From Ereboglobus sp. (GTDB lineage: Bacteria > Verrucomicrobiota > Verrucomicrobiia > Opitutales > Opitutaceae), in the NCBI GenBank assembly GCA_029974595.1, contig JARKRC010000063.1, positions 149,944 through 213,943 of the forward strand: a stretch of 64,000 nucleotides of DNA. The letters run 5' to 3'. Both the position numbers and the translations under genes were made by a program. Positions 11,538-63,080 of the stretch are shown in pieces. Under the pieces are notes generated by a model. The model did not search any database, was not told where the DNA came from, and saw only the letters and a list, made by a program, of their open reading frames with translations. Every line of letters starts with the position of its first letter. Position 1 is the first letter of the stretch.

Positions 11538-11688
11538 ATGATTATTTGGCGCTTCCCAACAGACGATAACGTATGGGATGCCGAGTCAAACGCAGGTTTG
11601 CAAAGTGACAGGCGCTCGGGCCTCCAGGCGGAAGTTGAGATCAATTTTACGGCTTTTCGCCGCTGGCGCGCGAGCGCGGCGGCACGAT

Positions 11689-16085: not shown

Positions 16086-16194
16086 ATTTTCGATTTTTGA
16101 TTCTCGATTTTCGATTGGGAGCTTCCGCTCCATCTTCGGATTTCAAACCGCGCGGTAGCGCGCAATCGAAAATCGAGAATCGAAAATCAAAAAT
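16086..16194. repeat. intergenic hairpin with 7-nt-word arms (ATTNTYG)n
   Basis: Left arm attttcgatttttgattctcgattttcgattg. Right arm caatcgaaaatcgagaatcgaaaatcaaaaat. The inner 19 nt are perfectly complementary, and the outer words are permuted. Confidence 0.85.
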
Positions 16195-23318: not shown

Positions 23319-23348
23319 CGATCGTGTATTTGCCATTCGGATACGACT

Positions 23349-41274: not shown

Positions 41275-41307
41275 CGCGAGTCCGCATGGGCGGCTCGCGT
41301 TTTTTTA
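41275..41307 (+). terminator. rho-independent terminator
   Basis: cgcgagtccgc-atgg-gcggctcgcg followed by ttttttt. It overlaps the recN stop codon. Confidence 0.7.
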
Positions 41308-42966
41308 TTTGCCGAGCAATTCCGCGGCGTGGGCGAGGGCGCTTTTCGCAGTGCGGTCGCCGAGCATGCGGGCGAGTTCGCTGACGCGCGCCTTGCGGTT
41401 CTCATGAATCGGCTCGATGGTGACGACGGCGCGGTCTTTTGACTGGTCTTTCGCCACGACAAGATGGTTCGCAGCCTGCGCGGCGACCTGCGGGAGGTGA
41501 GTGACGCAGAGCACCTGGTGGTTGCGCGCGATGGAGGCCATTTTTTCGCCGACCACGCTGCCGATTTCGCCGCCGACATTGGCGTCAACCTCGTCGAATA
41601 CGAGCAGCGGCACTTCGTCGAGGTCGGCGAGCACGGTTTTCAGCGCGAGCATGACGCGGGCGAGTTCGCCGCTCGATGCGACGCGGTTGAGGGGCAGGGG
41701 AGCCTCGCCGACATTGGGCGAGAAAAGAAACTCGCAGCCGCAATCGCCCGCCGGCCCCGGCTCGGCAAGCGAAGTGATGCTCACGCGGAAATCGGCTTTT
41801 TTGAAACCGAGCTGCGCAATGCTTTTGGCGGCGGCCCTGGCGAGCTCCCTCGATGCTTTTTCGCGGACGGCGCGCAGGGCTTGCGCGGCCCCGGACATGG
41901 CGCGGGCGGCGTCGGAAATCTGTTTTTCGATGCGGGCGAGCGAACCTTCGATGTCGCCCTGGATTTCGAGGCGGCGGCGCATGTCGTCGCGCGCGGCGAT
42001 GACGGCGCGCACGTCGTTGCCATGCTTGCGGCGGGCGTCGAGCCAGGTGTCCATGCGCGTTTGCAGTTCCGCGGCCTGCTCGGGGTCGAACTGGTATTCA
42101 CCGCCGAGCGTTTCGAATTCGGCGCCGAGGTCGGCAAGTTCGAGCGAGGCGGAGGCAAGGCGGTCTGCGAGCGCCTTGCTCGCGGGATCGAGCGTTTCGA
42201 GGCGCCGGGCCTCGCGCACGAGCGCGGCGACGCGGGCGATCGCGCCGTCCTCGCCCGTCAGGCCGCCCGCAAGCGCGGCGGCGATGCCGATCAATTCCTG
42301 CGCGCGGCTCTGGCGCTGAAAATCGCGTTCGAGCGTCTCGATCGCCTCCTCGGTGAGATCGAGCGCGTCGAGTTTGGCGAGCTGGCGTTCGAGAAAGCTG
42401 ATCTGGTCGGACGAGAGGCGTGTTTCGCTGGCGATGCGGTCGCGCGCGGCGAGGAGTTCGCGCCATGCGCGGTATTTTTCCTGATACGCGGAGAGCTCGG
42501 CGGTGGCGCGGCCGAAGAGGTCGAGGAGTTCGAGCTGGCAGCTTTCCTTGAGGAGGCGGCGGGGTTCGCTGGGGCCGTGAAAATCAATCCACGTTTCGCC
42601 GAGTCGCTGGAGCATGGCGAGCGAGGCGAGCCCGCCGTTGATGGTGATCTTGGGGGCTTTTTCGCGGGGCAGGCTGCGTTTGAGAATAAGCACGCCGTCG
42701 TCGCATTCGGGCAAGTCGAGCGACGCGAGGAGCGCGTTGATTTTTTGCGGGCGCTCGAAAAAAAACGAGGCCTCGACCTCGCACGCGGGCGCGCCCTGGC
42801 GGATGAGGGTTTTGTCCGCGCGTTCGCCGGCGAGCAGGCTGAGCGCGCCGAGGAGGATGCTTTTGCCCGCGCCCGTCTCGCCGGTGACGGCGGTGAAGCC
42901 GGATTCGAAGTCGAGCGACACTTCTTCGAGAAGGGCGAGGTTCTTGATGCGGAGCGATTGGAGCAT
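41305..42966 (-). CDS. recN: DNA repair protein RecN
   Basis: Walker A GETGAGKSIL, a long coiled coil, and C-terminal LLVFDEVDANVGG. Confidence 0.95.
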   Translation of the reverse strand: MLQSLRIKNLALLEEVSLDFESGFTAVTGETGAGKSILLGALSLLAGERADKTLIRQGAPACEVEASFFFERPQKINALLASLDLPECDDGVLILKRSLPREKAPKITINGGLASLAMLQRLGETWIDFHGPSEPRRLLKESCQLELLDLFGRATAELSAYQEKYRAWRELLAARDRIASETRLSSDQISFLERQLAKLDALDLTEEAIETLERDFQRQSRAQELIGIAAALAGGLTGEDGAIARVAALVREARRLETLDPASKALADRLASASLELADLGAEFETLGGEYQFDPEQAAELQTRMDTWLDARRKHGNDVRAVIAARDDMRRRLEIQGDIEGSLARIEKQISDAARAMSGAAQALRAVREKASRELARAAAKSIAQLGFKKADFRVSITSLAEPGPAGDCGCEFLFSPNVGEAPLPLNRVASSGELARVMLALKTVLADLDEVPLLVFDEVDANVGGEIGSVVGEKMASIARNHQVLCVTHLPQVAAQAANHLVVAKDQSKDRAVVTIEPIHENRKARVSELARMLGDRTAKSALAHAAELLGK

Positions 42967-44593: not shown

Positions 44594-44786
44594 TGTCAGA
44601 AGTTACCAAGCAAGGGGGTTTTGTTTTATATGCGGATATCAGGGTATCGAACGGCGTTTTTTTTATCACGGATAATGATTTTACGACGATAGCGAAAAAA
44701 TTATTTTTGGTGCGCATGGTTTGCGGACGTTGGGGTCGGGCGGATTGAACATTTGCTTTTCTCAAAACCTCCCGCATATTGCGGCC

Positions 44787-46178
44787 ATGCGCATCGAACG
44801 AGATTCCATGGGCGAAATGCCCGTTCCCGACGAGACCCTTTACGGCGCTTCCACACAGCGCGCGTATTTGAACTTTCCCATCAGCGGACGGCCCCTGCCC
44901 AACGCCTTCATTCGCGGCCTCGCGCTCGTGAAGCTGGCCGCGGCCGTTGCCAACGAGCAACTCGGCCAGCTTTCGCCGGAGAAGTCCCGCCTCATCCAGC
45001 AGGTCGCGCAGGAAGTCATCGAGGACAAGCACCACGCGCACTTCCCGCTCGATATTTTCCAGACCGGCTCGGGCACCTCGACAAACATGAACATGAACGA
45101 GGTCATCGCCAACCGCGCCAGCCAGATCACGGGCAATCCCATCGGCTCGAAAAAACCGTTGCACCCGAATGATCACGTCAACCACGGGCAGTCCTCGAAC
45201 GACGTCATCCCGACCGCCCTGCATGTCTCGGTCGCGCTCGCCTTGCATGGCCGCCTCGTGCCCGCGCTCAAACATTTGCAGGCCGAGCTCGACAGGAAGG
45301 CGCATGAATTCGCCGGCATTGTGAAAATCGGGCGCACGCATCTCATGGACGCCACTCCCGTCACGCTCGGCCAGGAATTCTCCGGTTACGCCGCGCAAGT
45401 TGAGAAAGCCGCCGCGCGCGCCCAGAAAGCAGTCGTCTGCCTGCGCGAGCTTGCCATTGGCGGCACGGCTGTCGGCACCGGCATCAACACGCATCCCGAG
45501 TTCGGCGCCGCGGTCGCCCGCATCCTGACCGAGAAAACCGGCATCCTTTTCTACGAGGCCGAAAACCACTTCGAGGCCCAGGCTGCGCGCGACGATTGTG
45601 TCGAGGCCGCCGGGCATCTTTCCGCGATTGCCGCCGCGCTCACAAAAATCGCGAACGACATCCGGCTCCTCGGCTCCGGCCCGCGCAGCGGTTTGCAGGA
45701 AATAAAGCTCCCCGCCACGCAGCCCGGCAGTTCCATCATGCCGGGCAAGGTGAACCCCGTGATGAGCGAGATGCTCGTGCAAGTGTGCATTTATACGCAG
45801 GGCATGGCCAATATTGTCGCCATGTGCGGGCGCGACGGGCACTTCGAGCTCAATGTCACGCTTCCGCTCATGGCCTACGCGCTCCACGACTCGATCCACT
45901 GTCTCGCCGCAGGCGCGCGCCAGTTTGCCGACGCCTGCGTGAAAGGCATCGAAGCCGACCCGGAGCGCTGCCGCGAGCTCGTTGACCGTTCGCTCATGCT
46001 CGTGACGGCGCTCAATCCGCACATCGGTTACGATGCGGCGGCGGCGGTCGCGAAGGAGGCGTATGCAAAAAACAAAACCCTCCGCGAAGTCGTCCTGGAA
46101 AAAGGCCTGCTCGACGCCGCCACGCTCGACCGCGCGCTCGACCCGGCAGGCATGACGAAGCCCGGAGCGGAAGGGTGA
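44787..46178 (+). CDS. fumC: class II fumarate hydratase
   Basis: Signature GSSIMPGKVNPV. Start set at MRIERDSMGE. Confidence 0.95.
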   Translation: MRIERDSMGEMPVPDETLYGASTQRAYLNFPISGRPLPNAFIRGLALVKLAAAVANEQLGQLSPEKSRLIQQVAQEVIEDKHHAHFPLDIFQTGSGTSTNMNMNEVIANRASQITGNPIGSKKPLHPNDHVNHGQSSNDVIPTALHVSVALALHGRLVPALKHLQAELDRKAHEFAGIVKIGRTHLMDATPVTLGQEFSGYAAQVEKAAARAQKAVVCLRELAIGGTAVGTGINTHPEFGAAVARILTEKTGILFYEAENHFEAQAARDDCVEAAGHLSAIAAALTKIANDIRLLGSGPRSGLQEIKLPATQPGSSIMPGKVNPVMSEMLVQVCIYTQGMANIVAMCGRDGHFELNVTLPLMAYALHDSIHCLAAGARQFADACVKGIEADPERCRELVDRSLMLVTALNPHIGYDAAAAVAKEAYAKNKTLREVVLEKGLLDAATLDRALDPAGMTKPGAEG

Positions 46179-46460
46179 AAGGTGAAGTGAGAAGAGTGAA
46201 AAGGTGAGAGATGAAAAGTGGCGGGGTCGCGCACGCCAAGGGCGTGCCACCCGTCAGCCCGGCGGTTGAGCGTTGCGCGAGACCCCGGGTATCGAAAGTT
46301 TGGATACACGCGCCCTGTAGGGGCGCCACAATTCGTCGAATTACGCCTATGGCACCCCTACAGGGTCCTTTCTGAAAACGACAGGAAACCCAGGGTCTCG
46401 CGCGACGCGCTCGACGCCTGGGCTGACGGGTGGCACGCTGTTGGCGTGCCGGGATACTTC
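46176..46460. repeat. composite repeat: 7-nt-word purine-rich arm plus a ~220-nt imperfect palindrome
   Basis: (GTGAARN)n tract at 46176-46222. Outer inverted repeat 46231-46260 vs 46420-46449 (27/30 matches). Second-tier inverted repeat 46261-46290 vs 46388-46419. Inner inverted repeat ccctgtaggggcgcc vs ggcacccctacaggg (46313-46365). Confidence 0.8.
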
Positions 46461-46488: not shown

Positions 46489-49400
46489 CTACTTCCGAAA
46501 CAGGCGGGAAATCTTGAAATTGCCCGAATCCGGATCGCTGAAGGGGGCTTGCTTGTATGCCGGCGCGTCAACGCTCCCGTTCTCATGGACAAACACCACG
46601 GCCAGCCAGAACTTGTCCGATTGGTTCAATGCATAAAGTATTTCGTTGTGGGTGAGCGTCACCGTCGTGGCGCCGGCGGCGCGGCCTTTCACCTCGATGT
46701 GACGCACGGGCGGCAAAGCGCTTCCCGGCGCGGCGGACGGCGGTTGCGAGGTGATGTCCCATCCGCATTTTTTCGCGGAAACATCTTCGACCGCGCAACC
46801 GCGCTCGCGCTCGGCGCGCATGACGGCGTCCATCGCCAAACGCTCTATGCGCGCCCGCGCCTCCGCGCTTTGCGCCCATCGCGGGATTTCATCATTTTCG
46901 TTCGTTTCGCCGTCATGCCGGTTTTCGGGAGCCGCTGCGTTGCCGTCGCGCAGCTTTTTCAGCAGTCCCGCCGGCACCACGAGCATGCCACCGGTGATGA
47001 CCGGCACGCCTTGCGTGACGTGCTTTTCCGCCTTGAGCGACGCCGTCCGGCTGTCCAGCCGGTCCTGTAATTCGTTCACGCGCCTGCGAATTTCGGACAG
47101 GGGCAGCCGCACGTCCTTGCCCGCATCCCCGTCCTCGGCGAGCCGCTGGTAACGGTCCGTCCAAAACTCGATTTCCCCGCTCAGTCTGTCGTGCACGGCG
47201 GACAGCGTTTTTTCGACGAGAGCCAGGTGCTGCCCTTTGATTTCCTCGAAGTGCGATGACGCCAGCTCCGAGGCGGCGCGGGCCACGACCTTCTTTTCCA
47301 GCGCGTCGAAGGAAATGTTTTCCGGCCAGATATCGCGCGCGCTTGCGCGAATCAGATTCGCATCCGTCGTGTCGAGAGGCTCCAAATCCAAGTGCGGCGC
47401 GTGGCCAGCGAAACCGGTTTCCCCGCCGGGTTGCGCGCGGACGAATTGCATGCGCCTAGACAACACCCGATTGTCCTTTCCCGCGCGAACCTCGTGCATC
47501 AGCAGGAACACCACCGCTGGCGTTTCGCCGGGGTCATTTCTGTCGAGCAGCATGGCGCCGCGTCGCAGGATTTCGGCGTGCCTGTCCAGCATGACATCCG
47601 TGATCGCCAGCATCAGCGGATGCCCCGGATGCAGGAGCACCGCGGAGGGCTCGCCGGATTTTGTCGCACGGGTTGCGTCTTTCTCGAAACACACCCGCTC
47701 GTATCTCTGCAAAACGGGCGCGCTGTCGCGGCGGTTGCGTCCGGTCAGCAGGCGGTCGCGGTCGCGCAACAGTCCCGGCACGTGGGTGATTTCCCAGCGT
47801 CCCGCGCCGCGCGCGTGGATGGAGCCGCCCAGCTTTGCGAACGTCTCCATGAAATACGCCCGCACAAAGTGCGGCTGGAGTTTGCGGGCCTCGGCCTCGT
47901 CCAGTTTCGCTTTCACGGCATACAGCCGACTGCTGTCCATTGCCTCCATGGCCAGCGCGTTTCTGGCCAGTAGCCCGCGAAGCCTTTCCGCGTCGAGAGC
48001 GTCGTCGATTCTCCGGCCCAGGCGTTCCCGCACCTCCCGCCTGTCGCCATAGCGGACGGCCTCGATCAACATGTCCTTGAGTGGCCTGTCCTCGAAAACC
48101 TCGCCCAGAATGTCGAACACCCGGCCCCTGAATGCCTCGCTGATCGCATCCAGTTTGTGAAGCAGTGTGAAATACACGTCGCCCTCGCGGGTCTCCTTGG
48201 CGACGAGATTCCAGAGGTGGCAGACCTCCGTTTGTCCGATGCGGTGGATGCGCCCGAAACGCTGCTCCAATCGGTTTGGGTTCCAAGGCAGGTCGTAGTT
48301 CACCATCAGGTTTGCGCATTGCAAATTGACGCCTTCGCCCGCCGCGTCCGTGGCGACGAGCACCCGCACAGCCTTGTCGGAGCGAAACAACGCCTGGATG
48401 CGGTGGCGCTCATCGCGGCTTGTGCCGCCGTGGATGACCTCCACCGCGCGCGCATCGCCGAGCACCCGGCTCACGCGCTCGCGCAGATACTCCAGCGTGG
48501 CGCGATGCTCGGTGAAGATAATCAACTTGCGGAGCCGTCCGCCGGAGTCGCGCAACTCGGCGCTGTCCGATTGCAGCAGGCCTGAAAGCTCGTCCCATTT
48601 TCTGTCCACGTTGGAGGCGCGCAATGCGCGCGCCTGTGATTCGAGTCGCCGCAGGATTTCGATTTCCTCGCGCAGTTGTGCGAGATTCGTAGCGGCGGTG
48701 GCGCGGTCAACGAGCTCCTCCTCGATTCCTTCGCGCTCTTCCGCGGTCATTTCGTCGTCATAATCCGCAACATCCAAGTCCTCCGCTTTCGGCTCCAGGA
48801 AACTGCCGCCGGAGCGGGCGGCGATTTCTTCCGCGCGCAGGCGTTTCTCCAGCCGTTCGAGGCGGTTTCGCAAAGACTGCCAGATCGCCTCCGGCGACGA
48901 GGCCAGGCGGCGTTGCAGGGTCGTCAGCGCGAGCCCGACGCTGCCCCTGCGCTTCCCGTCCAGCGCGTCGGCCTTGCCCATTTCATCCGTCACATAATCG
49001 GTGACGGCGTTGTAGAGATCGACCTCCGCGTCGGAGAGTTTGTAGTTGAGCGTGCGCGCCCGCCGCTCGGGAAACAATGGCGTGCCGTCGAAGCGCACAA
49101 GCGATTCCTTTGTCATGCGCCTCATCAGGTCCGTCGCGTCCACCTTGTGGACGCCGTCGCGGAACTTTCCGTAAAAACGGTCGCTGTCGAGCAGCGAAAG
49201 AAACAGTTGGAAATCCGCCTCCTTGCCGCTGTGCGGCGTGGCCGTCATCAGCAGCAGGTGCCGTGTCCTCGCGCCCAGCCTCTCGGCGAGACGGAAGCGC
49301 CCCGTGCGGCTGATTTTGTTGCCGTCGTAATGCGCCGCGAGTTTGTGCGCCTCGTCGAAAATCACCAAATCCCACTCCACGCCGAGCACGCTCGTTTGCA

Positions 49401-50082
49401 AGGGGCCGGGGCGGCGCGAGTCGTCGGAAGCCGCTTCCGGCGCGGTTTCCTCGTCGCGGGCCAGTTGGTCGAGGCGGCAAATGACGCGTTCGTTGTCGGT
49501 GAAAAAATTCCCCGTTTGCGTCGTGTTTTCGGCTCCCCGTGAAAAAACACGAAACGGCAGGCCGAACTTCTCCCAAAGCTCCTCGCGCCACTGCTCCACG
49601 AGCGAGCCGGGCGCGACGATCAGCACCCGGCGCGCGTCGGCGCGCAAAAGCAGCTCGCTGATGTAAAGCCCGGCCATGATGGTTTTGCCCGCTCCCGGAT
49701 CGTCGGCCAGCACGAAGCGCAACGGCTGGCGCGGCAGCATGCTTTCATAAACGGCGGTGATCTGGTGCGGCAGCGGCTCGACATTGGATGTGTGGACGGC
49801 CATGAGCCGATCGAACAGGAACGCCAGGTCCATGCGCTTCGCCTCGACAGTGAGCTTGAACTCCGTCCCGTCGCCATCGAAGGCCCAGTCGCTTCCGCAG
49901 GCAACGGCAACACCCTCCGCCTCGGCGGCAGTCAGCAGCCGCTCTCCGATGCCGCCATCCGCGTGTCGGTAAACAATCTGCACGGCCTCCGCCTCCATCG
50001 GCGTAACGGCAATGACGGTGACATTTCCGGCGGCATCGACACCGGAAAGGATGTGTCCGTTTTGGATTTCAGCCAGATTCAT
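46489..50082 (-). CDS. SNF2-family helicase with a C-terminal PD-ExK (DUF3883-like) domain
   Basis: Helicase motifs DDPGAGKT, FDEAHK, MTATPHSGK, QRFGRIHRIGQ. The C-terminal ~120 aa carry GWDI...RHIEVKG...LTHNE...FWLAVV, resembling a restriction-endonuclease fold. The start lies 3 nt after the upstream gene's stop. Confidence 0.9.
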   Translation of the reverse strand: MNLAEIQNGHILSGVDAAGNVTVIAVTPMEAEAVQIVYRHADGGIGERLLTAAEAEGVAVACGSDWAFDGDGTEFKLTVEAKRMDLAFLFDRLMAVHTSNVEPLPHQITAVYESMLPRQPLRFVLADDPGAGKTIMAGLYISELLLRADARRVLIVAPGSLVEQWREELWEKFGLPFRVFSRGAENTTQTGNFFTDNERVICRLDQLARDEETAPEAASDDSRRPGPLQTSVLGVEWDLVIFDEAHKLAAHYDGNKISRTGRFRLAERLGARTRHLLLMTATPHSGKEADFQLFLSLLDSDRFYGKFRDGVHKVDATDLMRRMTKESLVRFDGTPLFPERRARTLNYKLSDAEVDLYNAVTDYVTDEMGKADALDGKRRGSVGLALTTLQRRLASSPEAIWQSLRNRLERLEKRLRAEEIAARSGGSFLEPKAEDLDVADYDDEMTAEEREGIEEELVDRATAATNLAQLREEIEILRRLESQARALRASNVDRKWDELSGLLQSDSAELRDSGGRLRKLIIFTEHRATLEYLRERVSRVLGDARAVEVIHGGTSRDERHRIQALFRSDKAVRVLVATDAAGEGVNLQCANLMVNYDLPWNPNRLEQRFGRIHRIGQTEVCHLWNLVAKETREGDVYFTLLHKLDAISEAFRGRVFDILGEVFEDRPLKDMLIEAVRYGDRREVRERLGRRIDDALDAERLRGLLARNALAMEAMDSSRLYAVKAKLDEAEARKLQPHFVRAYFMETFAKLGGSIHARGAGRWEITHVPGLLRDRDRLLTGRNRRDSAPVLQRYERVCFEKDATRATKSGEPSAVLLHPGHPLMLAITDVMLDRHAEILRRGAMLLDRNDPGETPAVVFLLMHEVRAGKDNRVLSRRMQFVRAQPGGETGFAGHAPHLDLEPLDTTDANLIRASARDIWPENISFDALEKKVVARAASELASSHFEEIKGQHLALVEKTLSAVHDRLSGEIEFWTDRYQRLAEDGDAGKDVRLPLSEIRRRVNELQDRLDSRTASLKAEKHVTQGVPVITGGMLVVPAGLLKKLRDGNAAAPENRHDGETNENDEIPRWAQSAEARARIERLAMDAVMRAERERGCAVEDVSAKKCGWDITSQPPSAAPGSALPPVRHIEVKGRAAGATTVTLTHNEILYALNQSDKFWLAVVFVHENGSVDAPAYKQAPFSDPDSGNFKISRLFRK

Positions 50083-50085
50083 GGG

Positions 50086-53000
50086 TTATTGCTCCCAGTC
50101 CGCGTTTTTGAGTTTCAGCGTGGCGGCGTTTTCGGACACCGTGCGCTTCAGGTTTTTGTCCGCGCCGCCGGAGGCGTCGTTGAACTTCGCGTCGATTTCC
50201 AGCGTCACCACGACCTCCGCATTCGGGTTTGCGGCGAGGTGCTTGATGATTTCGTCGTAGATTACCCCGGCCTCGATTTTGCCGCTGGCCGTCTTTGACA
50301 GCACCGCCGTGCCGTGGAAGTGCCGCCACATCTCCGGCGGCGGGGCTGGCTCGGCTGGCGGGCTTGTCGGATCGATCGGCACGGTTCCATCCGGCGCTTC
50401 CGCGCCGTCCATGGACTCCGCAACGACTCCGGCTCCGCTCCGCTTGTTTGCATCCTCCAAATCCGCGGCGATCTGTGCCATCGCCGCGCACCCTTTGACC
50501 ACCAAGCCGGCGCCTCCGTCCGGCGGCAGTGCGATGCGCTCGCCGTGCGTCAGGCCCAGATACCGCTTCTTCGCGACGTCGTATTCGTCGGCGTAGGCGA
50601 AACCGTTTTCCGCCCACAGCAAATCCCCGTCGCCCACGCCGCTCACAACCGCATCCACAAGCGTCTCCGGCCCCTTCAGCCTCGGCAGATACAGGTAGCT
50701 CGCAAAATCCCTCGCGAGTTGCTCCACGCTCACATGCGCCTTGCCGCCCATGCCGTCGTCGCCCTCGCGCCATAGCAGCGATTTCTCCATCTCGCGCCGC
50801 AACGCCGCCGCGCCGAGCTTCCAGCAGAGCGCGTCCACGTCGCGCGCCCGCAGCCTTTTCGCGACGCGCGCGGCCAGCCCATCCGAGCCAGAAAGCCGGT
50901 GCTCGTTCCACGCCACGGGTGTCGTCGCCGATTCCTGCCACGGCACGAGCATCCAGCAAAAGGCCTCCTCAAGTTTGGGCGGGATGGCCTCGCCCGCCTT
51001 GTCGCGGTTGCGCTCTGCCTCGGTCTTATTGCGGTCCGTCAAATCGAGCCGCTTCGAGTCCTTTGCAATGCTTTCCCATGCCAGAAACAGCCGCGTCGCG
51101 TCTTCCACCTCGGCCAGCCGCTGCGCGTCCGCCCCCAGGAAAACAAGCGCGTTGCGAAACACGCGCGGCGCGTTGCCCCGTTGTTCGAGAAAATCCGTCG
51201 CGCGCGTCACCGCTTCCGATTTCTCCGTTTCGCCCGCGCCCGTGCGCCCGCGTGTGTGCGTGGCTTCCAGCGGGAGCACCACCAGCCGCGTCTCCATCTC
51301 GTCAGGCACGTCGCCGCTCGATTCCGGGAACTCGTGGATTTTTCCAAATTCGCCGCGCGCCTTCCGGATATTTTCGGAGACACGCTTGCGGATTTCGGCA
51401 GTCACGTCCTCCGGCTTGCCGCGCAATGCCTCGGCGCGATCCGCCGCCATGCGATTGAGCGTGGGCACCGTGTCGAACCACGAGCGCGTCCCGTCCTGGT
51501 GCAGATAAGTGGCCGTTTTGCCGAGGTGGCGCAGCGCGTCGCCTATGAACGCCAGCTCTTCGCCCGGCATCGCGCAGCCGAGTTTCACGCGATTGTCCTC
51601 CAGCCCGCGATTGTTTGCGCCCGCCTGGGGCGCGCTGCCGAGAAACACCGTGCGTGTCACGCGGCGGCACGCGGAAAATTTGCCGAGGTTGGGATTGTTC
51701 GTGTCGAGACGCGACGGCAGCGCGTCCGCCCCGTCCACCTCGCCCCCGATGACCGCCGCCCACGGCGCGGAAAGGTAGCGCATCCACTCGCTTTGCAGCA
51801 CCGCCACCGGCAGGTGGGCGGGCAGGATGAGCGGGTTCTTGTCGTCGTTGTGCCACAACGCGCGAATGACGCCCGCCATAAGGCGCAGCACGCCGCGCGT
51901 GCGCTGAAATTTCGCCATGCCGCCCCAGTCCTCGTAAAGCCGTTTGAACACTTCCGGATGCACCGGATACGCCTCGCGCATGCGCCGCTCGTAATCGGTA
52001 TCCCCGCATTCCGGCGGGAAATCCTGCCGCTTCGCATCGTAAAGCTCTGAGAACGCCCGCGCCGTCATGTCGCATTTCAATGCGGTTTCCGCCGTCAGCG
52101 GCTCGAACAGCCGTCGCCGCACAATCATAAAACTCTCCTCCGCCGACGCCGTGTGCCACGCGCTCGCCTTGCGCCGCACGACGTTGTCCAGGCGCGAGAG
52201 GGCGGTGCGCCCGCGCGGCCCGCCAAGCTCGATTTCGTCGCCCTGTCCCGCGCTGTCCGACGCGGGCAGCGACACCACCAGCAGCGCATTGCCCGCCGAG
52301 GCGACCGCCTCCGTGAGCGCCTGCGCAAATGTGAACTGCGTCTCGAAATCCCCGCCCGGCAGCTCGCGCCCGCCGCCCTTGTCCGGCAGCTCGCGCGCAT
52401 AGGCCACCCACTCGTCGATCAGGATGAGCGCGGGGCCGAATTTTTCCAGTAGCACGCCCAGGCGCGAGCCGGGGTTTGTCGCGTTCCCATCGTCGGCGCG
52501 CACGATGTCATAGGCCTCGCGCCCGCCAAGCTGCCACGCCAGTTCGCCCCACAGCGTCCTGACGCGCGTGCCGTCGCGCTTCGGGTCGAGGCCGCTCGCG
52601 GAAATCTGCGTGCCCACCAGCGCCACGCGCTTCACTTTTTGCGGCAGCGCGTTTTCGCCGCCCAGTTCCTCCAGCCCTGGCAAATCCTTCAGCGCCACGC
52701 CGGAAAACAGATGCCACAACGCCAGCATCGAATGCGTCTTGCCGCCGCCGAAATTCGTCTGCAACTGCACCACCGGATCGCCGCCCCGTCCCGCCAGCCG
52801 CGCCAGCGCGCCTTCGAGCAAACGCCGCAGGCTCTCCGTCAGGAAGGTCCGCCGGAAAAACTCCACGGGGCTCTTGTATTCCGCCGCCACGCCCTGCTCG
52901 CCGCCGAAAGCCACCTTCCACAAATCCGCCGCGAACTCCGCGTCGTTGAACTTCTCGCCGAGCACGTCCGCATGCGGCGTCACCACCTCGCGCCACGGCG

Positions 53001-53478
53001 ACAGCCCGCCCGTGATCTGCCCGTTGACCACCTGATACTGCGCATTGCGGCGCTCGTTGCTGATCTTTTTTTCCAGCGTCGCGCGGCTCAGGTCCGCCTT
53101 CATCTCGGCAAGCGCTTCCGCGCCTTTTGCATCGCCGACTTTTTCCAAAAGCCGCCGCGCCGTGTCCAGGGCGCGCTCCGTGTCGTCGTTGGAAAACGCC
53201 ACCTGGTGCGCCCAGCGGTTGCGGGCTTCGCCAAGCTCGTGGACATGCCCCAGTCCGTCGCGGCCCAGCGCGCGTTTGAAGAGCATCGTGTGCGCCATGA
53301 TGTTCAACGCACCCGCCGCGTCCCAGTTCGGCGCGCGGTCGCGCAAATCCGGCGCGATCTGGGCGCGCCAGTTTGTGCCAAAGGTTTTTTGCAGCTCTCC
53401 CGACACGTGGGCGGAGAGGGTTTTTTGCAGCAGTTCCATTGCCTTCGCGATGCGGTCGGTGTTGGTCAGTTTTGCCAT
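50086..53478 (-). CDS. HEPN-DUF499 P-loop ATPase
   Basis: N-terminal Swt1-like HEPN domain with Rx4H (RNRWAH, 53206-53223), Walker A NFGGGKTHS, and Walker B ALILIDEW. The body is large, about 1130 aa. Start set at MAKLTNTDRIAKAM. Confidence 0.88.
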   Translation of the reverse strand: MAKLTNTDRIAKAMELLQKTLSAHVSGELQKTFGTNWRAQIAPDLRDRAPNWDAAGALNIMAHTMLFKRALGRDGLGHVHELGEARNRWAHQVAFSNDDTERALDTARRLLEKVGDAKGAEALAEMKADLSRATLEKKISNERRNAQYQVVNGQITGGLSPWREVVTPHADVLGEKFNDAEFAADLWKVAFGGEQGVAAEYKSPVEFFRRTFLTESLRRLLEGALARLAGRGGDPVVQLQTNFGGGKTHSMLALWHLFSGVALKDLPGLEELGGENALPQKVKRVALVGTQISASGLDPKRDGTRVRTLWGELAWQLGGREAYDIVRADDGNATNPGSRLGVLLEKFGPALILIDEWVAYARELPDKGGGRELPGGDFETQFTFAQALTEAVASAGNALLVVSLPASDSAGQGDEIELGGPRGRTALSRLDNVVRRKASAWHTASAEESFMIVRRRLFEPLTAETALKCDMTARAFSELYDAKRQDFPPECGDTDYERRMREAYPVHPEVFKRLYEDWGGMAKFQRTRGVLRLMAGVIRALWHNDDKNPLILPAHLPVAVLQSEWMRYLSAPWAAVIGGEVDGADALPSRLDTNNPNLGKFSACRRVTRTVFLGSAPQAGANNRGLEDNRVKLGCAMPGEELAFIGDALRHLGKTATYLHQDGTRSWFDTVPTLNRMAADRAEALRGKPEDVTAEIRKRVSENIRKARGEFGKIHEFPESSGDVPDEMETRLVVLPLEATHTRGRTGAGETEKSEAVTRATDFLEQRGNAPRVFRNALVFLGADAQRLAEVEDATRLFLAWESIAKDSKRLDLTDRNKTEAERNRDKAGEAIPPKLEEAFCWMLVPWQESATTPVAWNEHRLSGSDGLAARVAKRLRARDVDALCWKLGAAALRREMEKSLLWREGDDGMGGKAHVSVEQLARDFASYLYLPRLKGPETLVDAVVSGVGDGDLLWAENGFAYADEYDVAKKRYLGLTHGERIALPPDGGAGLVVKGCAAMAQIAADLEDANKRSGAGVVAESMDGAEAPDGTVPIDPTSPPAEPAPPPEMWRHFHGTAVLSKTASGKIEAGVIYDEIIKHLAANPNAEVVVTLEIDAKFNDASGGADKNLKRTVSENAATLKLKNADWEQ

Positions 53479-53518
53479 GGGATTTGGGTGTTTGTGGTTA
53501 GTGGTTGAAGCGTGGTTC

Positions 53519-53620
53519 GGGGAGCGCACGCGTCTCGCGTGCTGGTTTTGGCGTCCCGCCAAAACCTGTTTGTTGTTCGGCGGGACGCCGGACAAAGCAC
53601 GCGGGACGCGTGCGCTCCCC
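53519..53620. repeat. REP-like palindromic element inside the operon
   Basis: Arm ggggagcgcacgcgtctcgcgtgctggttttggcgtcccgcc matches the reverse complement of ggcgggacgccggacaaagcacgcgggacgcgtgcgctcccc. About 35 of 42 nt pair. The loop is 18 nt. Confidence 0.85.
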
Positions 53621-53657
53621 GGCAGGTGTTTCTTGCATCGCGTGAATCGCACGCATG

Positions 53658-56522
53658 TCAGAGCAGTTTCCCCTGTTCCGGTTTTGCCGCCGGCGTCTCC
53701 GCCGCGAGCGCGGCGAGCACGCCCCAGCCGGAGACGAGCGCGTTGTAGCCCTGCGCGTCCGCGCCGCGCCCGCTGCGCTCGGCCATGTTGAACAAACGAT
53801 ATGCCAGCGAACGCGCGTCATCGGCGCGGTCGCCCATCTCGCGCATCAGCGCAGCCGTCGCGGGTTCGCCCGCGTTCTCGACATGCCAGAGCCGCACGAG
53901 GTGGTGCGTCATCTCCCAGACGGTTAGCCGTGAATCTGTTTTCGGCGACCAGTCGCGCGGCAGTTCCGCCGGGCGCAGCAGTCGTGCCTTGCCGCCGCCG
54001 CTTTCCAAAATCCCCGCTTCGAGCAATGCCGACACGGAGATGTTTTTCGCGTTGGCGAGCGTCTCCGCGTCGCCGTAACGCGCCGCGTCGAAACCGTATT
54101 GGGCAAACCAGGCCAGCGCCCAGCGCGTCTCGTGGTCGTAATCGCCCTCATGCTCGGAGAGCACGGCGTCCTTGACTTGGATGATGGTCGCCAGTGCCTC
54201 GGCCACACTCATCGCGTTGCCCTCATTGTCTTCTACCTGCTTGTATTTGGAAAACACGGCCATGCCGGGACCGATGATGGCCTGCTCCAAGTCCACCGGA
54301 GCGATGGGAGAACCACTCGTCATATCCGCCAATGCTTTTGGTAGTTCCGTGTTTAACTCGCGCAAAAAATCACGGCGTGAAATCGAACACGCGTTCTCAT
54401 CGCGCTTGCGGCAGACCAGGATGATGCTGGATGCAAGGGCATTTGTACCATTGCCAATAGTTCGGCCTTCTTTTTCCGTTCGCATTGGCCATGTTCCTGT
54501 GACTGCGAATCCAACTCGAATGACAGCTTCCAAAAACGTCGCCCAACCCGTGTTTGACCTACCTTCGGATTTCAGTTCCGACTGTTTGAACGCGTAGTAA
54601 ATCGTCACGGGAAACGCCGGATGCGACAATTTTGCGAGGTTCTCTATCGCGGAAGTCATGCCGTCCAAGAAAAATTTTTCCGCAGCCTCCTTACTCCCAT
54701 GACGATAAGGCGTAGCGACAAGTTCATCCGTTTTCGGCACCACCAATGTCCCGAATAATTCAGGGTATATCGGTCCCAGCGATTTCCTTAGCCAGACGTA
54801 GAAGAAATCCGACAAATCTGCATAGCTGATGTTGTCATAATAAGGAGGGTCGGTGGAAATCACCTTGTCTATGCTGATGCGTTGAGTTTGCGCGTCAGCT
54901 TGCATGGCATGTCCGGCACCATTCCCAATCAACGCTCCCAACCCTTTTATTTGCCGTTCGAAGAGGTTGTTAAAACTTCCCGTTGAATCGCTAAGAATGT
55001 TTGCTTCGGCAAAGTCCCAGACCATCGGAATTGCTTGCCGCGAGAAGACCGATCGCATCTGCGTATTTGGATGATTCCATCCGCAAATTGAAGAAGAGTG
55101 GTTCGCTAACTGACTTACAAGAAACCCTAGATATACGCTGACGGCTTCAGCGTAGTCTTGGACATCGGTTTCCTTCGCGTCTTGATGGATAATTTCTCTC
55201 ACTTTTTGCATCAAGTCGCCAAACGTCGTCAATGCCATCAGTTGCCGCGAAGTGAACAAGTCGCCCCAAGTAAAAAATCCATAGCCGCGGCCGCTCACCA
55301 GATTCGCCGTATCGCGGTTCATCGTCGGAAATGTTTCTCGAATGATTTTCGCTCGTTCTTCAAGTTCTCCCAAGTCGGTATCTTGGTTTGGAGGCAAATA
55401 GACTCGTCCTCGTTTGCCTTCGGCGACAACAGCCATGAGTCTGGCACCCATGCGTCCCTTCATACTCTCCTCTTTGATATATTTTCCGGGAATGATTGTT
55501 TGGGAGAAGATACATTTGAAATCGGAACCTTTGCTTCCCGATTTGGTGCCATTTTCTGCTCCTGCTGGTGGCTTGCCCATACGCACTTCGAAACGGTAAC
55601 TATTACCGCTGATAACAGGCTCCACCCACGCCTCTCTGCCTGCCTTCGACGACAGTATGAATGTTGAGGTCAACGGCACTTCCGCACCTCCGAGTGCAGG
55701 ATTTGGCGAGCGCACCGTCCGAGCCCATAGCCATGCAATCACCGTGAGTTCCTCGCCGAGGTAGCTGCGCAGGATGGGTTGTTTCTGCACCACGTCTTTC
55801 GTGATTTTGATTCTTGGATACAGTTCCGCGATGATTTTTTCCGCCTCCCGGCGCATCCACTGCCCGTAGTAACGCACGTCCTCGGCAAGCCCTGTCGCGC
55901 CCGGCCAGCCATGTTCGCGCGCGGTATCATTTTGTGCATCGGGATTGACTGGAGGACGTCCCGCGAACTTCGGTGGAATCTCAATCATGGCCTTGTTGAT
56001 GAGCACGGCCACGGGATTCAAATCGCTCGCATATGACTCCAGACCCAATCGCTGCGCCTCCAGCGGCAGCGCACCTCCGCCTGCAAACGGATCGTGAAAC
56101 GCCGGGAGTTTTTGGGAATCAAAGAGCTCGCCGGCGCAGGGGTGGTTTGCGTTGTCGGCACAGGTGCGTTCCCAGCTTTTGCGAATCTCCGCGCGCGCTT
56201 CGTTGAGGACGTCTTCGTTTGTGGTGTTTTCCCAAACCACCAGCTTCGTGATGATGGCGAACAACCGCTCTCGCTCCTTCTTGACGGACTCTTGTGTCGG
56301 AAACAGTTCGGGATGCGAGGATGGGTCATCCACCATCTGCGCGAAGATGACAGCCCGTGCGGCGGCGAGCGGGCGTCGCGCCCACCACAAATGAAGCGTC
56401 GAAGGATGGCCGTGCCGGATGGATTTTTCACGGGCGGCGGCGGCGTTGATGGCGTCGAGGGGTAGGGCGACCTCGATGAGTTTTTTGCGCACGACAGGCG
56501 CGCTGCTGATGGGTGTGGACAT
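53658..56522 (-). CDS. DUF1156-type DNA methyltransferase (N6A/N4C class)
   Basis: N-terminal signature KKLIEVALPLD...REKSIRHGHPSTLHLWWARRP. AdoMet motif I HDPFAGGGA (56073-56093). Catalytic motif STDPPYY (54840-54851). Start set at the second ATG (56522), because the first ATG (56552) lies inside a hairpin. Confidence 0.9.
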   Translation of the reverse strand: MSTPISSAPVVRKKLIEVALPLDAINAAAAREKSIRHGHPSTLHLWWARRPLAAARAVIFAQMVDDPSSHPELFPTQESVKKERERLFAIITKLVVWENTTNEDVLNEARAEIRKSWERTCADNANHPCAGELFDSQKLPAFHDPFAGGGALPLEAQRLGLESYASDLNPVAVLINKAMIEIPPKFAGRPPVNPDAQNDTAREHGWPGATGLAEDVRYYGQWMRREAEKIIAELYPRIKITKDVVQKQPILRSYLGEELTVIAWLWARTVRSPNPALGGAEVPLTSTFILSSKAGREAWVEPVISGNSYRFEVRMGKPPAGAENGTKSGSKGSDFKCIFSQTIIPGKYIKEESMKGRMGARLMAVVAEGKRGRVYLPPNQDTDLGELEERAKIIRETFPTMNRDTANLVSGRGYGFFTWGDLFTSRQLMALTTFGDLMQKVREIIHQDAKETDVQDYAEAVSVYLGFLVSQLANHSSSICGWNHPNTQMRSVFSRQAIPMVWDFAEANILSDSTGSFNNLFERQIKGLGALIGNGAGHAMQADAQTQRISIDKVISTDPPYYDNISYADLSDFFYVWLRKSLGPIYPELFGTLVVPKTDELVATPYRHGSKEAAEKFFLDGMTSAIENLAKLSHPAFPVTIYYAFKQSELKSEGRSNTGWATFLEAVIRVGFAVTGTWPMRTEKEGRTIGNGTNALASSIILVCRKRDENACSISRRDFLRELNTELPKALADMTSGSPIAPVDLEQAIIGPGMAVFSKYKQVEDNEGNAMSVAEALATIIQVKDAVLSEHEGDYDHETRWALAWFAQYGFDAARYGDAETLANAKNISVSALLEAGILESGGGKARLLRPAELPRDWSPKTDSRLTVWEMTHHLVRLWHVENAGEPATAALMREMGDRADDARSLAYRLFNMAERSGRGADAQGYNALVSGWGVLAALAAETPAAKPEQGKLL

Positions 56523-56523
56523 A

Positions 56524-56660
56524 GACAGGGCTTTTGAATGCTCGCGCGACATTCAGCCCTGTCGGGATGGCTTGTCCTGTGTGTGCCTTTTGCGGTGCCT
56601 GAAAACAAAGAGGGGGCGTATCAAACGCCCCGTCACAGGCACCGCTAAGAGCCCACACAG
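56524..56660 (-). promoter_or_regulatory. structured leader upstream of the methylase gene
   Basis: Hairpin gacagggc..gaatg/cattc..gccctgtc (56524-56563) encloses ATG 56552. A three-tier nested stem spans 56577-56660: ctgtgtg/cacacag, gcggtgcctg/caggcaccgc, ggggcg/cgcccc. Confidence 0.5.
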
Positions 56661-56919
56661 AAGCGCTACGACACGCCCCCAATGGGAGCTGCATCGAGCG
56701 CCGTCCTGTGTTTCGAAATTAGCGGTTTCGTGACGGACAGCAGCCGAAGCTACGCGAAAAAATTAAATGTATGGATGGAGGATTATTCTTGGCGGTGAGT
56801 GAGTGGTTGCAGGAAAGACGGAGCCAACAGCCACGCGTATTTTGCGCGAGTTCGCAAGCCCGCTCTTGCCGGAAATACTCCCGGCCGGACCAGTGCCTCG
56901 CCCCGCCAACGTGGAAATC

Positions 56920-57537
56920 TCACAAATACTCCCGGCGGCCTTCGAGGGCGCTCTTGAGGGTCACCGAGTCGGCATACAAAACACCGCCGCCGCTTGGGAG
57001 GCCGAAGCCGATGCGTGTGGTTTTCACAGGCTCGCCGTCTGTCGTTTTCGGCAGGTGCTGGGTGAGGAAATGGCATGTCGCCTCGCCCTCCACGTCGTTC
57101 GACAGGGCGAGGATCAACTCGCGCGCGCCGCCGGTTCCCACGCGCTCGAACAGCGGCGCGAGGTTCAACTGCCCGGGGCCCACGCCCGAGATGGGGGAAA
57201 GTTTCCCGTGCAGCACATGATACACGCCGCGATACGCGCCCGAGTGCTCCATCGCCATCAAATCCGGCACATGCTCGACGACGCACACCACGGACTGGTC
57301 GCGGCGTTCGTCGGCGCAAATCGCGCATACCGGCGCATCGCCGTTTCCTTCCGCGAGATTGCCGCAGCGCACGCAACGCTTTACCGCGCGCGCTGCCTCG
57401 TGCAGCGCCTCCACGAGCGCGGGCAGGCGCTCCGGTTTTTCGACGAGCAAGTGCATCGCAATCCGCTCCGACGACCTGAAGCCGAGCCCGGGAAGTTGCT
57501 TTAGCTGCTTTTGCAGTTTTTCGAACGAAGGAGTCAT
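56920..57537 (-). CDS. recR: recombination protein RecR
   Basis: HhH region (LPGLGFRSSERIAMHL), zinc finger CVRCGNL...CAIC, and a Toprim domain. Confidence 0.95.
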   Translation of the reverse strand: MTPSFEKLQKQLKQLPGLGFRSSERIAMHLLVEKPERLPALVEALHEAARAVKRCVRCGNLAEGNGDAPVCAICADERRDQSVVCVVEHVPDLMAMEHSGAYRGVYHVLHGKLSPISGVGPGQLNLAPLFERVGTGGARELILALSNDVEGEATCHFLTQHLPKTTDGEPVKTTRIGFGLPSGGGVLYADSVTLKSALEGRREYL

Positions 57538-57538: not shown

Positions 57539-57664
57539 AAAATTACGATTTACGAATTACGATTTACGATTGAAGGAAGGGCGCTGCCGCGCCGGCGGGT
57601 TTACGCCGGTGGCCGGTTGTTTGGGGCTCTTCATTCGTAAATCGTAAATTGTAATTCGTAAATT
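57539..57664. repeat. intergenic hairpin with 7-nt-word arms (ATTTACG)n
   Basis: Left arm aaattacgatttacgaattacgatttacgattg. Right arm cattcgtaaatcgtaaattgtaattcgtaaatt. It fills the whole ybaB-recR spacer. Confidence 0.85.
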
Positions 57665-60620: not shown

Positions 60621-60747
60621 GGAAGGATGTAGAGAGGAGTCAGGATGGGAGGATGTAGAGGAGTCAGGAGTTAGAGGAGTCAGGAGACGATCCTCGGAGC
60701 CGGAGTGCTTTTCTCCTGACTCCTTCCATCCTGACTCCTTTAACTCC
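60621..60747. repeat. hairpin repeat, family GGAGTCAGG (copy 1)
   Basis: GGAGTCAGG words on the left arm, CCTGACTCC words on the right arm, and a loop containing cggagccggagtgctttt. The second copy is at 62977-63080. Confidence 0.85.
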
Positions 60748-60833
60748 TTCTTTTTGGGCTTTCCACGCGCGCGCGTGGCCCGTGGCAAAGTTTGGCTTCC
60801 GTTTTTTTTGGCGATGTCCGAAGGTTTCCGCGC

Positions 60834-61775: not shown

Positions 61776-61776
61776 G

Positions 61777-61923
61777 ATTCACCACAAAGGCACGAAGAGC
61801 ACAAAGGTCGGAAGGAGACCGAAGGTAGAGATCAAAAGCCAACGTGTCTTTTTGTCCTCTGTCTCCCGATCTCTGATCTCTGCCTTTTCCGACCTTCGTG
61901 CTCTTCGTGCCTTTGTGGTGAAT
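61777..61923. repeat. long hairpin repeat, family TTCACCACAAAGGCAC (copy 2)
   Basis: attcaccacaaaggcacgaagagcacaaaggtcggaagg pairs almost perfectly with ccttttccgaccttcgtgctcttcgtgcctttgtggtgaat. Confidence 0.88.
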
Positions 61924-62972
61924 CAATCCGGGGCTTCGCAGTTGGGGCGGGCGATGACGCCGGGGTAGGGGGCGTCGGAGAAGAGGCGCGCGGGTTCCGC
62001 GAGGAGGTGTCGGTCGCAGACTTCAAAGAGCGCGGCGGCGGTCGTGGCGCGGCGCATGTCGCGGAGGAAGGCGGCGTCGGGATCGACGGACTGGCCGATG
62101 AAGTTGAGGAATTTCTTCATGCGGCTGATGTGCGCGTGCTCGGGAATCGGCTCGCCGGTGCCGGCGTCGGCTGCGGTGGCTTCGTAGAGGCGCTGGATGT
62201 AGTCGCGCACGTCGGCAAGCGTGACGGGCGTGACGGGCTGGCCGGAGAAATACTCGCGGCACTGGCGGAAAATCCACGGGTTGCGGATGGCGTGGCGGCC
62301 TATCATCACACCGGCGGCGCGGGTTTCGGCGACGACGGCGGAGGCTTTCGCCGCGGTGACAATGTTTCCATTGGCGAGGACGGGGCAGCGGACGCGCGCG
62401 ACGGCGCGGGCGATTTCGTCGTAGTGAACCTCGCTGCGGTAGAGTTCGCGCACGGTGCGTCCGTGGACGCTGAGCATGTCGATGCGGTGCGTGTTGATGA
62501 GGTCGAGTATTTCCTCGTAGTGCCGCGTGTCCTCGAAGCCGATGCGCATTTTCACCGTGAAAAGCCCGGGGACGGCGGCGCGGAGGGCGGCGAGGATTTC
62601 GCCGATTTTTTTCGGTTCGCGCAAAAGTCCGCCGCCGACGTTTTTCTTGTAAACCTTCGGCGCGGGACAGCCGAGGTTGAGGTCGATACCGGCGATGGGA
62701 TGGCGCAAAAGTTCCTCGACCGTTCGCATGAGGAGCGACACGTCCTCGCCGATGAGCTGGGCGAAAATGGGACGGCCCGTCGTGTTTTCGTCAATGGAAC
62801 GGAGGATGTGTTTTTCGGGGCGTGATTGCGCGTGGACGCGGAAGAATTCGGTGACGAAGTAATCGGGCGCGCCGCAGCGCGCGATGACGCGCATGAACGC
62901 GAGATCGGTGACGTCCTGCATCGGCGCGAGCGCGGTCAGCGGCTGGTTCGGCGTGATGGGCGCGGGAAGCAT
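61923..62972 (-). CDS. dus: tRNA-dihydrouridine synthase
   Basis: LAPMQDVTDLAFM and IDLNLGCPAPKV (catalytic Cys). FMN TIM-barrel family. Confidence 0.9.
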   Translation of the reverse strand: MLPAPITPNQPLTALAPMQDVTDLAFMRVIARCGAPDYFVTEFFRVHAQSRPEKHILRSIDENTTGRPIFAQLIGEDVSLLMRTVEELLRHPIAGIDLNLGCPAPKVYKKNVGGGLLREPKKIGEILAALRAAVPGLFTVKMRIGFEDTRHYEEILDLINTHRIDMLSVHGRTVRELYRSEVHYDEIARAVARVRCPVLANGNIVTAAKASAVVAETRAAGVMIGRHAIRNPWIFRQCREYFSGQPVTPVTLADVRDYIQRLYEATAADAGTGEPIPEHAHISRMKKFLNFIGQSVDPDAAFLRDMRRATTAAALFEVCDRHLLAEPARLFSDAPYPGVIARPNCEAPD

Positions 62973-62976: not shown

Positions 62977-63080
62977 GGAAAGGAGTCAGGATGGGAGGAG
63001 TCAGGAGTTAGAGGAGGCAGGCAGCGGAGCCGGAGTGCTTTTTACTGACTCCTGACTCCTTTACATCCTGACTCCTTTGC
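62977..63080. repeat. hairpin repeat, family GGAGTCAGG (copy 2)
   Basis: ggaaaggagtcaggatgggaggagtcaggagttagagg...cggagccggagtgcttttt...actgactcctgactcctttacatcctgactcc. Confidence 0.85.

Follow-up and report, generated by a model that had tools for sequence, protein, structure and literature searches.

An intact, compact Hma-type operon between fumC and recR of an Opitutaceae-like verrucomicrobium, and a dispersed palindromic element in its hmaB-hmaC spacer

What kind of system is encoded by three neighbouring genes found between fumC and recR in contig JARKRC010000063.1 of Ereboglobus sp., and which of their products would act against invading DNA? The window analyzed here is the whole stretch of 64,000 nucleotides (nt), corresponding to positions 149,944 to 213,943 of that contig. 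An earlier interpretation based on the letters of the DNA (the sequence-only reading) had described the genes as a co-directional minus-strand defence operon of the helicase-methylase-ATPase (Hma) type, and the open reading frames (ORFs) and their flanks were confirmed. The genes, each present once and separated by gaps of 179 nt and 3 nt, are referred to below as hmaB, hmaC and hmaA.

53658..56552, minus strand: hmaB, DUF1156-type N6-adenine DNA methyltransferase, 964 amino acids (aa) from the ATG at 56552
53479..53657, minus strand: hmaB-hmaC spacer, 179 nt
50086..53478, minus strand: hmaC, HEPN_Swt1 domain fused to a DUF499, putatively BrxC-like AAA+ ATPase, 1130 aa from the first ATG
50080..50088, minus strand: junction of the hmaC stop and the hmaA start, TAA-ccc-ATG, 3-nt gap
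46489..50082, minus strand: hmaA, SNF2-family helicase with a C-terminal NOV_C/DUF3883 PD-ExK nuclease, 1197 aa

Each predicted protein matched the corresponding PADLOC model over its full length: HmaA with 1691 bits (aa 1-1187), HmaB with 1417 bits (aa 21-957) and HmaC with 903 bits (aa 159-1129). The next-best models were DUF499 for HmaC (107 bits), and DrmD (383 bits) and BrxHI (313 bits) for the helicase. All three ORFs are full-length, free of frameshifts and stops, and their catalytic motifs are intact. The Hma system is defined by three genes located on one strand, each present once, with no more than three embedded genes between them; no embedded ORF was found in the ORF listing of either gap. 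At the sequence level the locus can be assigned to Hma because the HmaA, HmaB and HmaC matches are full-length, the genes lie on one strand and nothing is embedded. The domain predictions of the sequence-only reading (DUF1156, HEPN/DUF499 and SNF2 plus PD-ExK) were supported by Pfam profiles above the gathering cut-offs; every motif it quoted is present in the three proteins, and its Hma label holds. As judged from these comparisons, the locus is an intact, compact and typical member of the catalogued Hma system, also described as the Type-1 DUF499-centred BREX-related (BR) system.

We favour, with a probability of about 0.7, a reading in which this intact system combines self-marking, sensing and cutting. 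HmaB would methylate adenine at N6 within a short host motif, thus marking self DNA, and its variable central region would set the motif. The BrxC-like AAA+ protein HmaC would assemble on DNA, discriminate unmodified invader DNA and then license HmaA, whose SNF2 motor would translocate on DNA while its PD-ExK domain introduces nicks or cuts into that DNA. A second, back-up effector, acting by abortive infection, would be the HEPN RNase at the N terminus of HmaC. Finally, a hairpin inserted at the 3′ end of hmaB would most likely attenuate read-through or stabilise the hmaB message, and either effect would favour the methylase over the restriction components. Essentially the same mechanism has been proposed for the Type-1 systems (PMC12839542).

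The methylase had previously been placed at 53658-56522. The ORF was confirmed, but the ATG chosen there is the second in frame, while the database gene call starts at 56552 and yields 964 aa. A public protein collection contains, as gene calls for this contig, this 964-aa methylase and the exact 1130-aa ATPase; the helicase protein, looked up by exact match in the contig index, gave no record. Homologues mostly start about five residues before a conserved KKLIEV, and it is possible that translation of hmaB begins at either ATG 56552 or ATG 56522. The DUF1156 domain (1.9e-32, Pfam, above the gathering cut-off) spans aa 29-100 (56253-56468). The elements of the protein follow the order HP..P-like DUF1156 signature (aa 47-61), motif I DPFAGGG (aa 154-160; 56073-56093), an insert of about 400 aa, and motif IV DPPY (aa 568-571; 54840-54851). 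The patterns DPFxGxG and (D/N)PP(Y/F/W) are kept in all 45 of the 45 HmaB homologues compared.

The composition of hmaB is not uniform. Codons ~301-750 (54303-55652) have a GC content at third positions (GC3) of 0.42-0.62, compared with 0.75-0.9 over the remainder of the operon, and a milder dip over the same stretch is present in hmaB of the closest Hma locus, L001, which originates from an Opitutaceae metagenome-assembled genome (MAG) and encodes an HmaC 78% identical to that of the window. Residues 451-550, the variable region of the family, are only 44-46% identical between the two HmaB proteins, and the flanking bins 66-86%. A recent donor of the variable region was not found: over aa 441-560, identity to homologues is 68% at most. 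This mosaic pattern suggests that the part of the protein that determines specificity has been exchanged or has diverged rapidly, as is usual for methylases of this sort. One HmaB homologue (P0245; 1228 aa, encoded on a 5.36-Mb contig) is annotated with a Y1 transposase domain (PF01797) in addition to DUF1156; it is a fusion protein, or else the gene caller joined the gene to an IS200/IS605-type insertion. A Y1_Tnp gene also lies near ybaB-recR in the Opitutaceae relative L082 (5730-6740).

The ORF containing hmaC extends from 50086 to 53652, but the 58 codons that precede its first ATG encode only Arg/Pro-rich junk, and the start was accordingly placed at 53478. Within HmaC, the HEPN_Swt1 domain (2.1e-20, Pfam) occupies aa 12-115 (53134-53445) and includes the motif RNRWAH at aa 86 (53206-53223). 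The DUF499 region (1.2e-25, above the Pfam gathering cut-off) contains Walker A GGGKT at aa 244 (52735-52749) and Walker B LILIDE at aa 351. RNxxxH is kept in 77 of 80 HmaC homologues and Walker A in all 80; HEPN_Swt1 together with DUF499 was found in 120 of the 120 best homologues among the matches listed. No solved structures related by sequence to HmaB or HmaC were found. An AlphaFold2 (AF2) model of HmaC built from 48 sequences has a mean predicted local distance difference test score (pLDDT) of 68.5, with the HEPN domain and residues 670-1010 modelled confidently. Its two best fold matches in the PDB are both the Acinetobacter BREX ATPase BrxC (9zll_B and 9zdx_C). The model thus weakly indicates that DUF499 is BrxC-like, and this independent fold-level likeness to a newly solved BrxC, although weak, is a by-product of some value.

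The fold of HmaC raises the question of how the locus relates to BREX. In common with type 3 BREX (BrxC, PglXI, BrxHII, PglZ and others), the window locus has an AAA+ protein of probable BrxC-like fold, a helicase that matches the BrxHI and BrxHII models (271-313 bits) and the logic of an N6-adenine methylase self-mark. A similarity of the Type-1 methylase to the Type-3 BREX methyltransferase has been claimed (PMC12839542). The window helicase differs from its BREX counterpart in carrying a predicted active nuclease. BREX, for which PglZ, BrxC and PglX together are diagnostic, was rejected, as only the fold of HmaC resembles BrxC: PADLOC gave no sequence-level match to BrxC or PglX, and domains of PglZ, BrxA, BrxB and BrxL were absent from HmaA, HmaB and HmaC and from the products of fumC, the sulfatase gene, recR, ybaB and typA. 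The same observations bear on an alternative in which a methylase-ATPase complex blocks replication in a BREX-like manner, with no DNA degradation and a dispensable nuclease. The likeness of HmaC to BrxC and of the helicase to BrxHII, together with the classification of the family as BREX-related, speaks for such a block. However, none of the PglZ, BrxA, BrxB and BrxL components is encoded in the locus or its flanks, and the PD-ExK nuclease is kept in 30 of 30 full-length helicases and is required in the Halomonas homologue described below, so we regard this alternative as very improbable.

The helicase core of HmaA (aa ~101-636; 48175-49782) matched the Pfam SNF2-rel_dom and Helicase_C profiles above their gathering cut-offs and contains GAGKT at aa 130, DEAH at aa 243 and QRFGRIHR at aa 607; its ResIII match reflects the superfamily 2 (SF2) core only. 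The NOV_C domain (7.9e-21) spans aa 1079-1167 (46582-46848) and includes residues D1109, E1130-x-K1132 and E1147. Motifs I, II and VI and the C-terminal D..ExK are each found in 30 of 30 full-length relatives, and the nearest solved structure by sequence is RapA. The TAA-ccc-ATG arrangement reported by the sequence-only reading was confirmed. A Shine-Dalgarno-like motif, GGGAG, is located inside the last hmaC codons, and the equivalent junction of L001 reads TGA-agcg-ATG with the same GGGAG. Translational coupling of hmaC and hmaA is plausible because of the 3-4-nt gap and the GGGAG motif in both loci. In L122, an Hma locus of a Puniceicoccales MAG (HmaC 70% identical), two AAA_14/DUF4143 ATPase genes (5472-6785 and 10493-11740) flank the helicase gene; one of them is an embedded gene that parts hmaC from hmaA, two genes only 3 nt apart in the window.

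The helicase also resembles components of other defence systems. Its DrmD score (383 bits in PADLOC and 382 bits in NCBIfam) constitutes a likeness to DISARM, which was rejected: the NCBIfam cut-off is 610, and DrmA, DrmB (DUF1998) and DrmC (phospholipase D, PLD) are absent from the locus. An anti-phage trio of DUF1156, DUF499 and PLD-helicase proteins (NCBIfam NF042962-NF042964) was likewise excluded, with scores of 127, 140 and 177 bits against cut-offs of 1000-1200; having a PLD nuclease where the window has PD-ExK, it is a sister type and not the same family. A classical Type I or Type III restriction-modification (R-M) system was rejected on the grounds that there is no HsdS specificity subunit and no further ORF. 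The absence of a specificity subunit had been noted before, and it stands, the flanking gaps containing no additional ORF.

The only Hma component tested experimentally is HmaA of Halomonas (PMC11232893). Expressed alone in E. coli, this protein restricts phage T4, giving ~100-fold protection, and it is non-toxic in the absence of the methylase (PMC11232893). Its defence needs both motif VI (R610) and the glutamate of ExK (E1104), and the NOV_C domain is a nickase; residues D1084, E1104, K1106 and E1121 were probed by mutation, and an ExK mutant loses defence at a multiplicity of infection (MOI) of 2 (PMC11232893). The statement of the sequence-only reading that the effector is not known is therefore partly outdated, since a PD-ExK nickase and motif VI of HmaA are required against T4 (PMC11232893). 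SNF2 motifs I and VI are present in the Halomonas meridiana protein as in HmaA of the window, and the PD-ExK spacing is the same (D1109/E1130/K1132/E1147 in the window, D1084/E1104/K1106/E1121 in Halomonas). In Halomonas, Septu and other genes lie among the hma genes, whereas the window operon is compact and its HmaC carries HEPN.

Could HmaA then be an autonomous sensor-effector, a single-protein helicase-nuclease defence like Nhi and Hna, with HmaB and HmaC as accessory proteins for tuning, self-protection or an independent HEPN layer of abortive infection, and not as obligatory members of a complex that reads methylation? The activity and lack of toxicity of Halomonas HmaA on its own speak for such autonomy. 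In addition, unrelated defence genes are frequently embedded among the Hma genes, in 62.7% of 1485 systems according to a 2024 preprint that used Hma as a "guilt-by-embedding" scaffold (bioRxiv 10.1101/2024.01.29.577857), and in L122 hmaC and hmaA are parted by an embedded gene. However, the three genes co-occur over at least 26 phyla with the same-strand arrangement kept, and the 3-nt hmaC-hmaA gap, similar in L001, argues for stoichiometric co-expression. We consider an autonomous HmaA rather unlikely.

A different division of labour would make the HEPN RNase of HmaC the primary effector, acting by abortive infection through RNA cleavage, with a minor or sensing role for PD-ExK. The intact RNxxxH motif of HmaC, its retention among homologues and the HEPN fusion present in over half of Type-1 systems, namely in 1370 of 2446 taxa (PMC12839542), are consistent with this. 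Against it, ~44% of these systems have no HEPN domain while 79% keep the helicase-nuclease fusion (PMC12839542), and the ExK mutant of Halomonas HmaA is defective, which together make a HEPN-first mechanism quite improbable. The same survey bears on the suggestion that the present copy is special in combining HEPN with PD-ExK: this is the majority form.

Several observations weigh against the favoured self-mark, sensing and cutting scheme. The roles given to HmaB and HmaC are inferred from their domains only. The AF2 model of HmaB has a mean pLDDT of 66, with the regions of motifs I and IV below 50, and a comparison of this poor model with PDB folds gave no match with E <= 0.001. The match of HmaC to 9zll_B (E 6.1e-5, probability 1.00, 512 columns) has a template modelling (TM) score of 0.43 normalised to the target, which is weak, and is unaccompanied by any sequence-level BrxC match in PADLOC. 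The activity of Halomonas HmaA without HmaB and HmaC, and its lack of toxicity, fit poorly with strict R-M logic (PMC11232893). A regulatory role of the hairpin is purely conjectural. Copies of the family to which it belongs occur in both orientations relative to transcription, and the copy in the window, read in the mRNA sense, shows a C-A mismatch in place of a G-U pair. With regard to the fold of HmaB, the structural matches of the poor model were short, local and weak; they were to beta-class amino-methyltransferases (CcrM, M1.HpyAVI, TTHA0409 and MTA1) and may hint at a permuted, beta-like core.

The system itself is not obscure. The HEPN-DUF499/methylase/helicase neighbourhood was first noticed in a 2013 HEPN survey, as credited in PMC12839542; Hma was named in 2021 in the PADLOC paper, with 1638 instances from 26 phyla (PMC8565338), and the systems were re-described in 2026 in Nucleic Acids Research as Type-1 DUF499-centred BREX-related systems of 2446 taxa (PMC12839542). 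Our protein searches gave at least 8000 homologues each for HmaC and HmaB, and a scan of one genome per species revealed more than 589 loci with full-length HEPN-ATPase relatives, distributed among Verrucomicrobiota, Planctomycetota, Chloroflexota, Acidobacteriota, Proteobacteria, Deinococcota, Bacteroidota and methanogenic archaea. The window locus is thus one more canonical Hma/Type-1 BR copy among thousands catalogued and is not new. It shares with the HEPN-fused variant the three domain architectures, the full-length matches to hidden Markov models and the location on one strand. Its gene order, B-C-A, is shared with L001, L036 and L122, and differs from the A-B-C order of ~40 other complete loci; on this comparison, B-C-A is common to the Opitutae relatives. 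In contrast to the majority of Hma systems, it has no embedded genes, and it departs from the typical arrangement in the palindromic element inserted in the B-C spacer. The host, an Opitutaceae-like verrucomicrobium, is less tractable than many others, and this copy is no better suited than any compact HEPN-fused copy for testing the cooperation of Hma components.

The spacer between hmaB and hmaC had been described as structured. This proved correct: the region 53479-53657 folds with -94.4 kcal/mol (z = -10.3 relative to shuffled sequences), and its structure lies in the following element.

53518..53621, no strand assigned: palindromic element resembling a doublet of repetitive extragenic palindromic (REP) sequences, 104 nt, inserted in the spacer, with 46-nt arms

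The outer arms of the element are GGGGAGCGCACGCGTC and GACGCGTGCGCTCCCC, and its inner hairpins centre on GGCGTCCCGCC and GGCGGGACGCC. In L001 the spacer is only 54 nt long, homologous at its 3′ part and devoid of the element, which by this comparison is a lineage-specific insertion. A search with a pattern derived from the two 16-nt arms identified a family of copies on 38 metagenome contigs (L084-L121) from termite gut, soil and peat, with GC contents of 49-70% and a single copy each. The 38 contigs show no relationship to one another beyond the element, and Hma genes are missing from all of them. Where the context is clear, the element is situated a few nt after the stop codon of valS, gltX, thrC, an aminotransferase gene, a ThuA gene or other housekeeping genes, in either orientation relative to transcription. 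An Hma-specific regulatory role of the spacer hairpin was therefore rejected, given its absence from L001 and the lack of Hma genes near the 38 other copies. The recognition of the structured spacer as a dispersed palindromic element, and not an Hma-specific regulatory RNA, is a second by-product of some value.

Copies of the family are 96-118 nt long and their arms, GGGGAGCGCACGCGTC...GACGCGTGCGCTCCCC, are invariant. They form a 24-bp outer stem, each arm of which is itself a mini-palindrome, GCACGCG-YCY-CGCGTGC, and inner hairpins around GGCGTCYCGCC and GGCGRGACGCC. The stems covary, and the consensus fold shows covariation in hairpin B. When 39 copies were folded, a multi-hairpin junction was obtained for 25 and one long hairpin for the remaining 14. 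Bases immediately flanking the conserved arms are also complementary but vary from copy to copy; no target-site duplication in the form of direct repeats was found at the element, its flanks being inverted repeats. No Rfam family matched it. A covariance-model scan and a mismatch search revealed no further copies in the 64-kb window, and none were found in ~47 kb of related Opitutae loci or in viral contigs.

As an imperfect palindrome of ~105 nt with mini-hairpin arms, located in intergenic regions at the 3′ ends of genes, the element resembles REP doublets, known as REPINs (compare PMC3733652). It differs from them in lacking the GTAG or CGTC tag architecture and in having arms conserved across contigs of 49-70% GC, and no associated RAYT or other transposase was identified. 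By analogy, it may be a REP doublet or REPIN; in that case, tens to hundreds of copies and a Y1/RAYT transposase flanked by GCACGCGTCTCGCGTGC would be expected. A high-copy REP is unsupported, with one copy per 64-kb window and none in the ~47 kb of Opitutae loci. We tentatively suggest, while considering it rather unlikely, that the family is undescribed, low-copy and widespread, possibly inserting into small palindromes at 3′ ends of genes, and that here it would act as a polarity switch uncoupling the methylase from the potentially self-toxic HEPN-ATPase and helicase-nuclease.

An insertion within an operon could also mean that the system is silent or a decaying relic, its expression disrupted by the element. 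The element is indeed an insertion relative to L001, and the hmaC start is without the GGAG that L001 has at this position. However, none of the three ORFs is truncated, frameshifted or interrupted by a stop, all catalytic motifs are intact, and the GC3 of hmaC and hmaA is fully host-like, which makes a relic scarcely credible.

The surroundings of the operon include the following features.

44721-46178, plus strand: fumC, flanking gene, convergent with hmaA
46231..46449, no strand assigned: large imperfect inverted repeat, 52-nt arms, 81% complementary, 115 nt apart
56553..56919, minus strand: leader, 367 nt from the recR stop to the hmaB start, with an 84-nt hairpin at 56577-56660
56920-57537, minus strand: recR, flanking gene, followed by ybaB and typA

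RecR of the window shares 83% identity with the protein of Ereboglobus luteus (Opitutaceae) and 98% with a metagenomic RecR encoded on contig L081. The latter aligns with the window from 59738 down to 56918 with 89.5% nt identity, and the homology ends exactly at the recR stop, beyond which L081 has Wzy_C-type and other genes and no Hma; the 367-nt leader is also absent from this nearest relative. The description of the operon as inserted is borne out by this breakpoint. The Hma locus of L001 adjoins ATP-binding-cassette (ABC) transporter genes, and that of L122 adjoins genes of a type VI secretion system (T6SS). Because homology to L081 stops at the recR stop and the neighbours in L001 and L122 differ, the operon and its leader are best read as strain-variable, horizontally moving DNA located directly downstream of recR.

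The possibility that the window is a defence island was rejected, as the neighbours are housekeeping genes: acs, kup, lepA, a recN-like gene, mgtE, a gene of an NtrC-type regulator, fumC, recR, ybaB and typA. Hma systems are usually found outside defence islands (bioRxiv 10.1101/2024.01.29.577857). Elsewhere in the window PADLOC gave just two matches, both to candidate-system models: the SMC_N-domain (recN-like) ORF 41305-42966 matched 'mad3' (107.6 bits), and the sigma-54 response regulator 10023-11537 matched RtcR_PspF2--CARF_AAA_HTH (367 bits). Both are best explained by shared ATPase domains, not by defence systems. A 1036-aa ORF at 21978-25088 (minus strand) has a coding-like GC3 of 0.69 and no Pfam or PADLOC match. 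The sole Rfam match at the gathering threshold in the whole window is tRNA-Val; when the spacer, the leader and the downstream gap were scanned permissively, the only matches were to microRNA-type hairpin models, all below threshold, and there was no known riboswitch, leader or small RNA. No credible ORF was found in either flanking intergenic region (the leader and the fumC-side gap), and a sigma-70 promoter scan of the region gave no candidate.

The large inverted repeat at 46231..46449 lies in the 310-nt gap between the convergent hmaA and fumC genes and is probably a bidirectional terminator-type structure. Other long inverted repeats, whose arms range from 20 to 52 nt in the set as a whole, occupy intergenic positions at 16086-16194, 61776-61924, 57540-57664, 7159-7248, 9919-10006, 60666-60748 and 62996-63076 of the window. 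Several of the arms in this set are short-period, low-complexity sequences (ATTTTCGATT-like, AATTACGATTT-like, GTAGCGAGTAGCGG-like and AGGAGTCAGGAG-like). The repeats are located at gene ends, one of them between the co-directional ybaB and recR, and are probably terminator or mRNA-stabiliser structures typical of the lineage. Large hairpins in such positions are characteristic of this genome and not of Hma.

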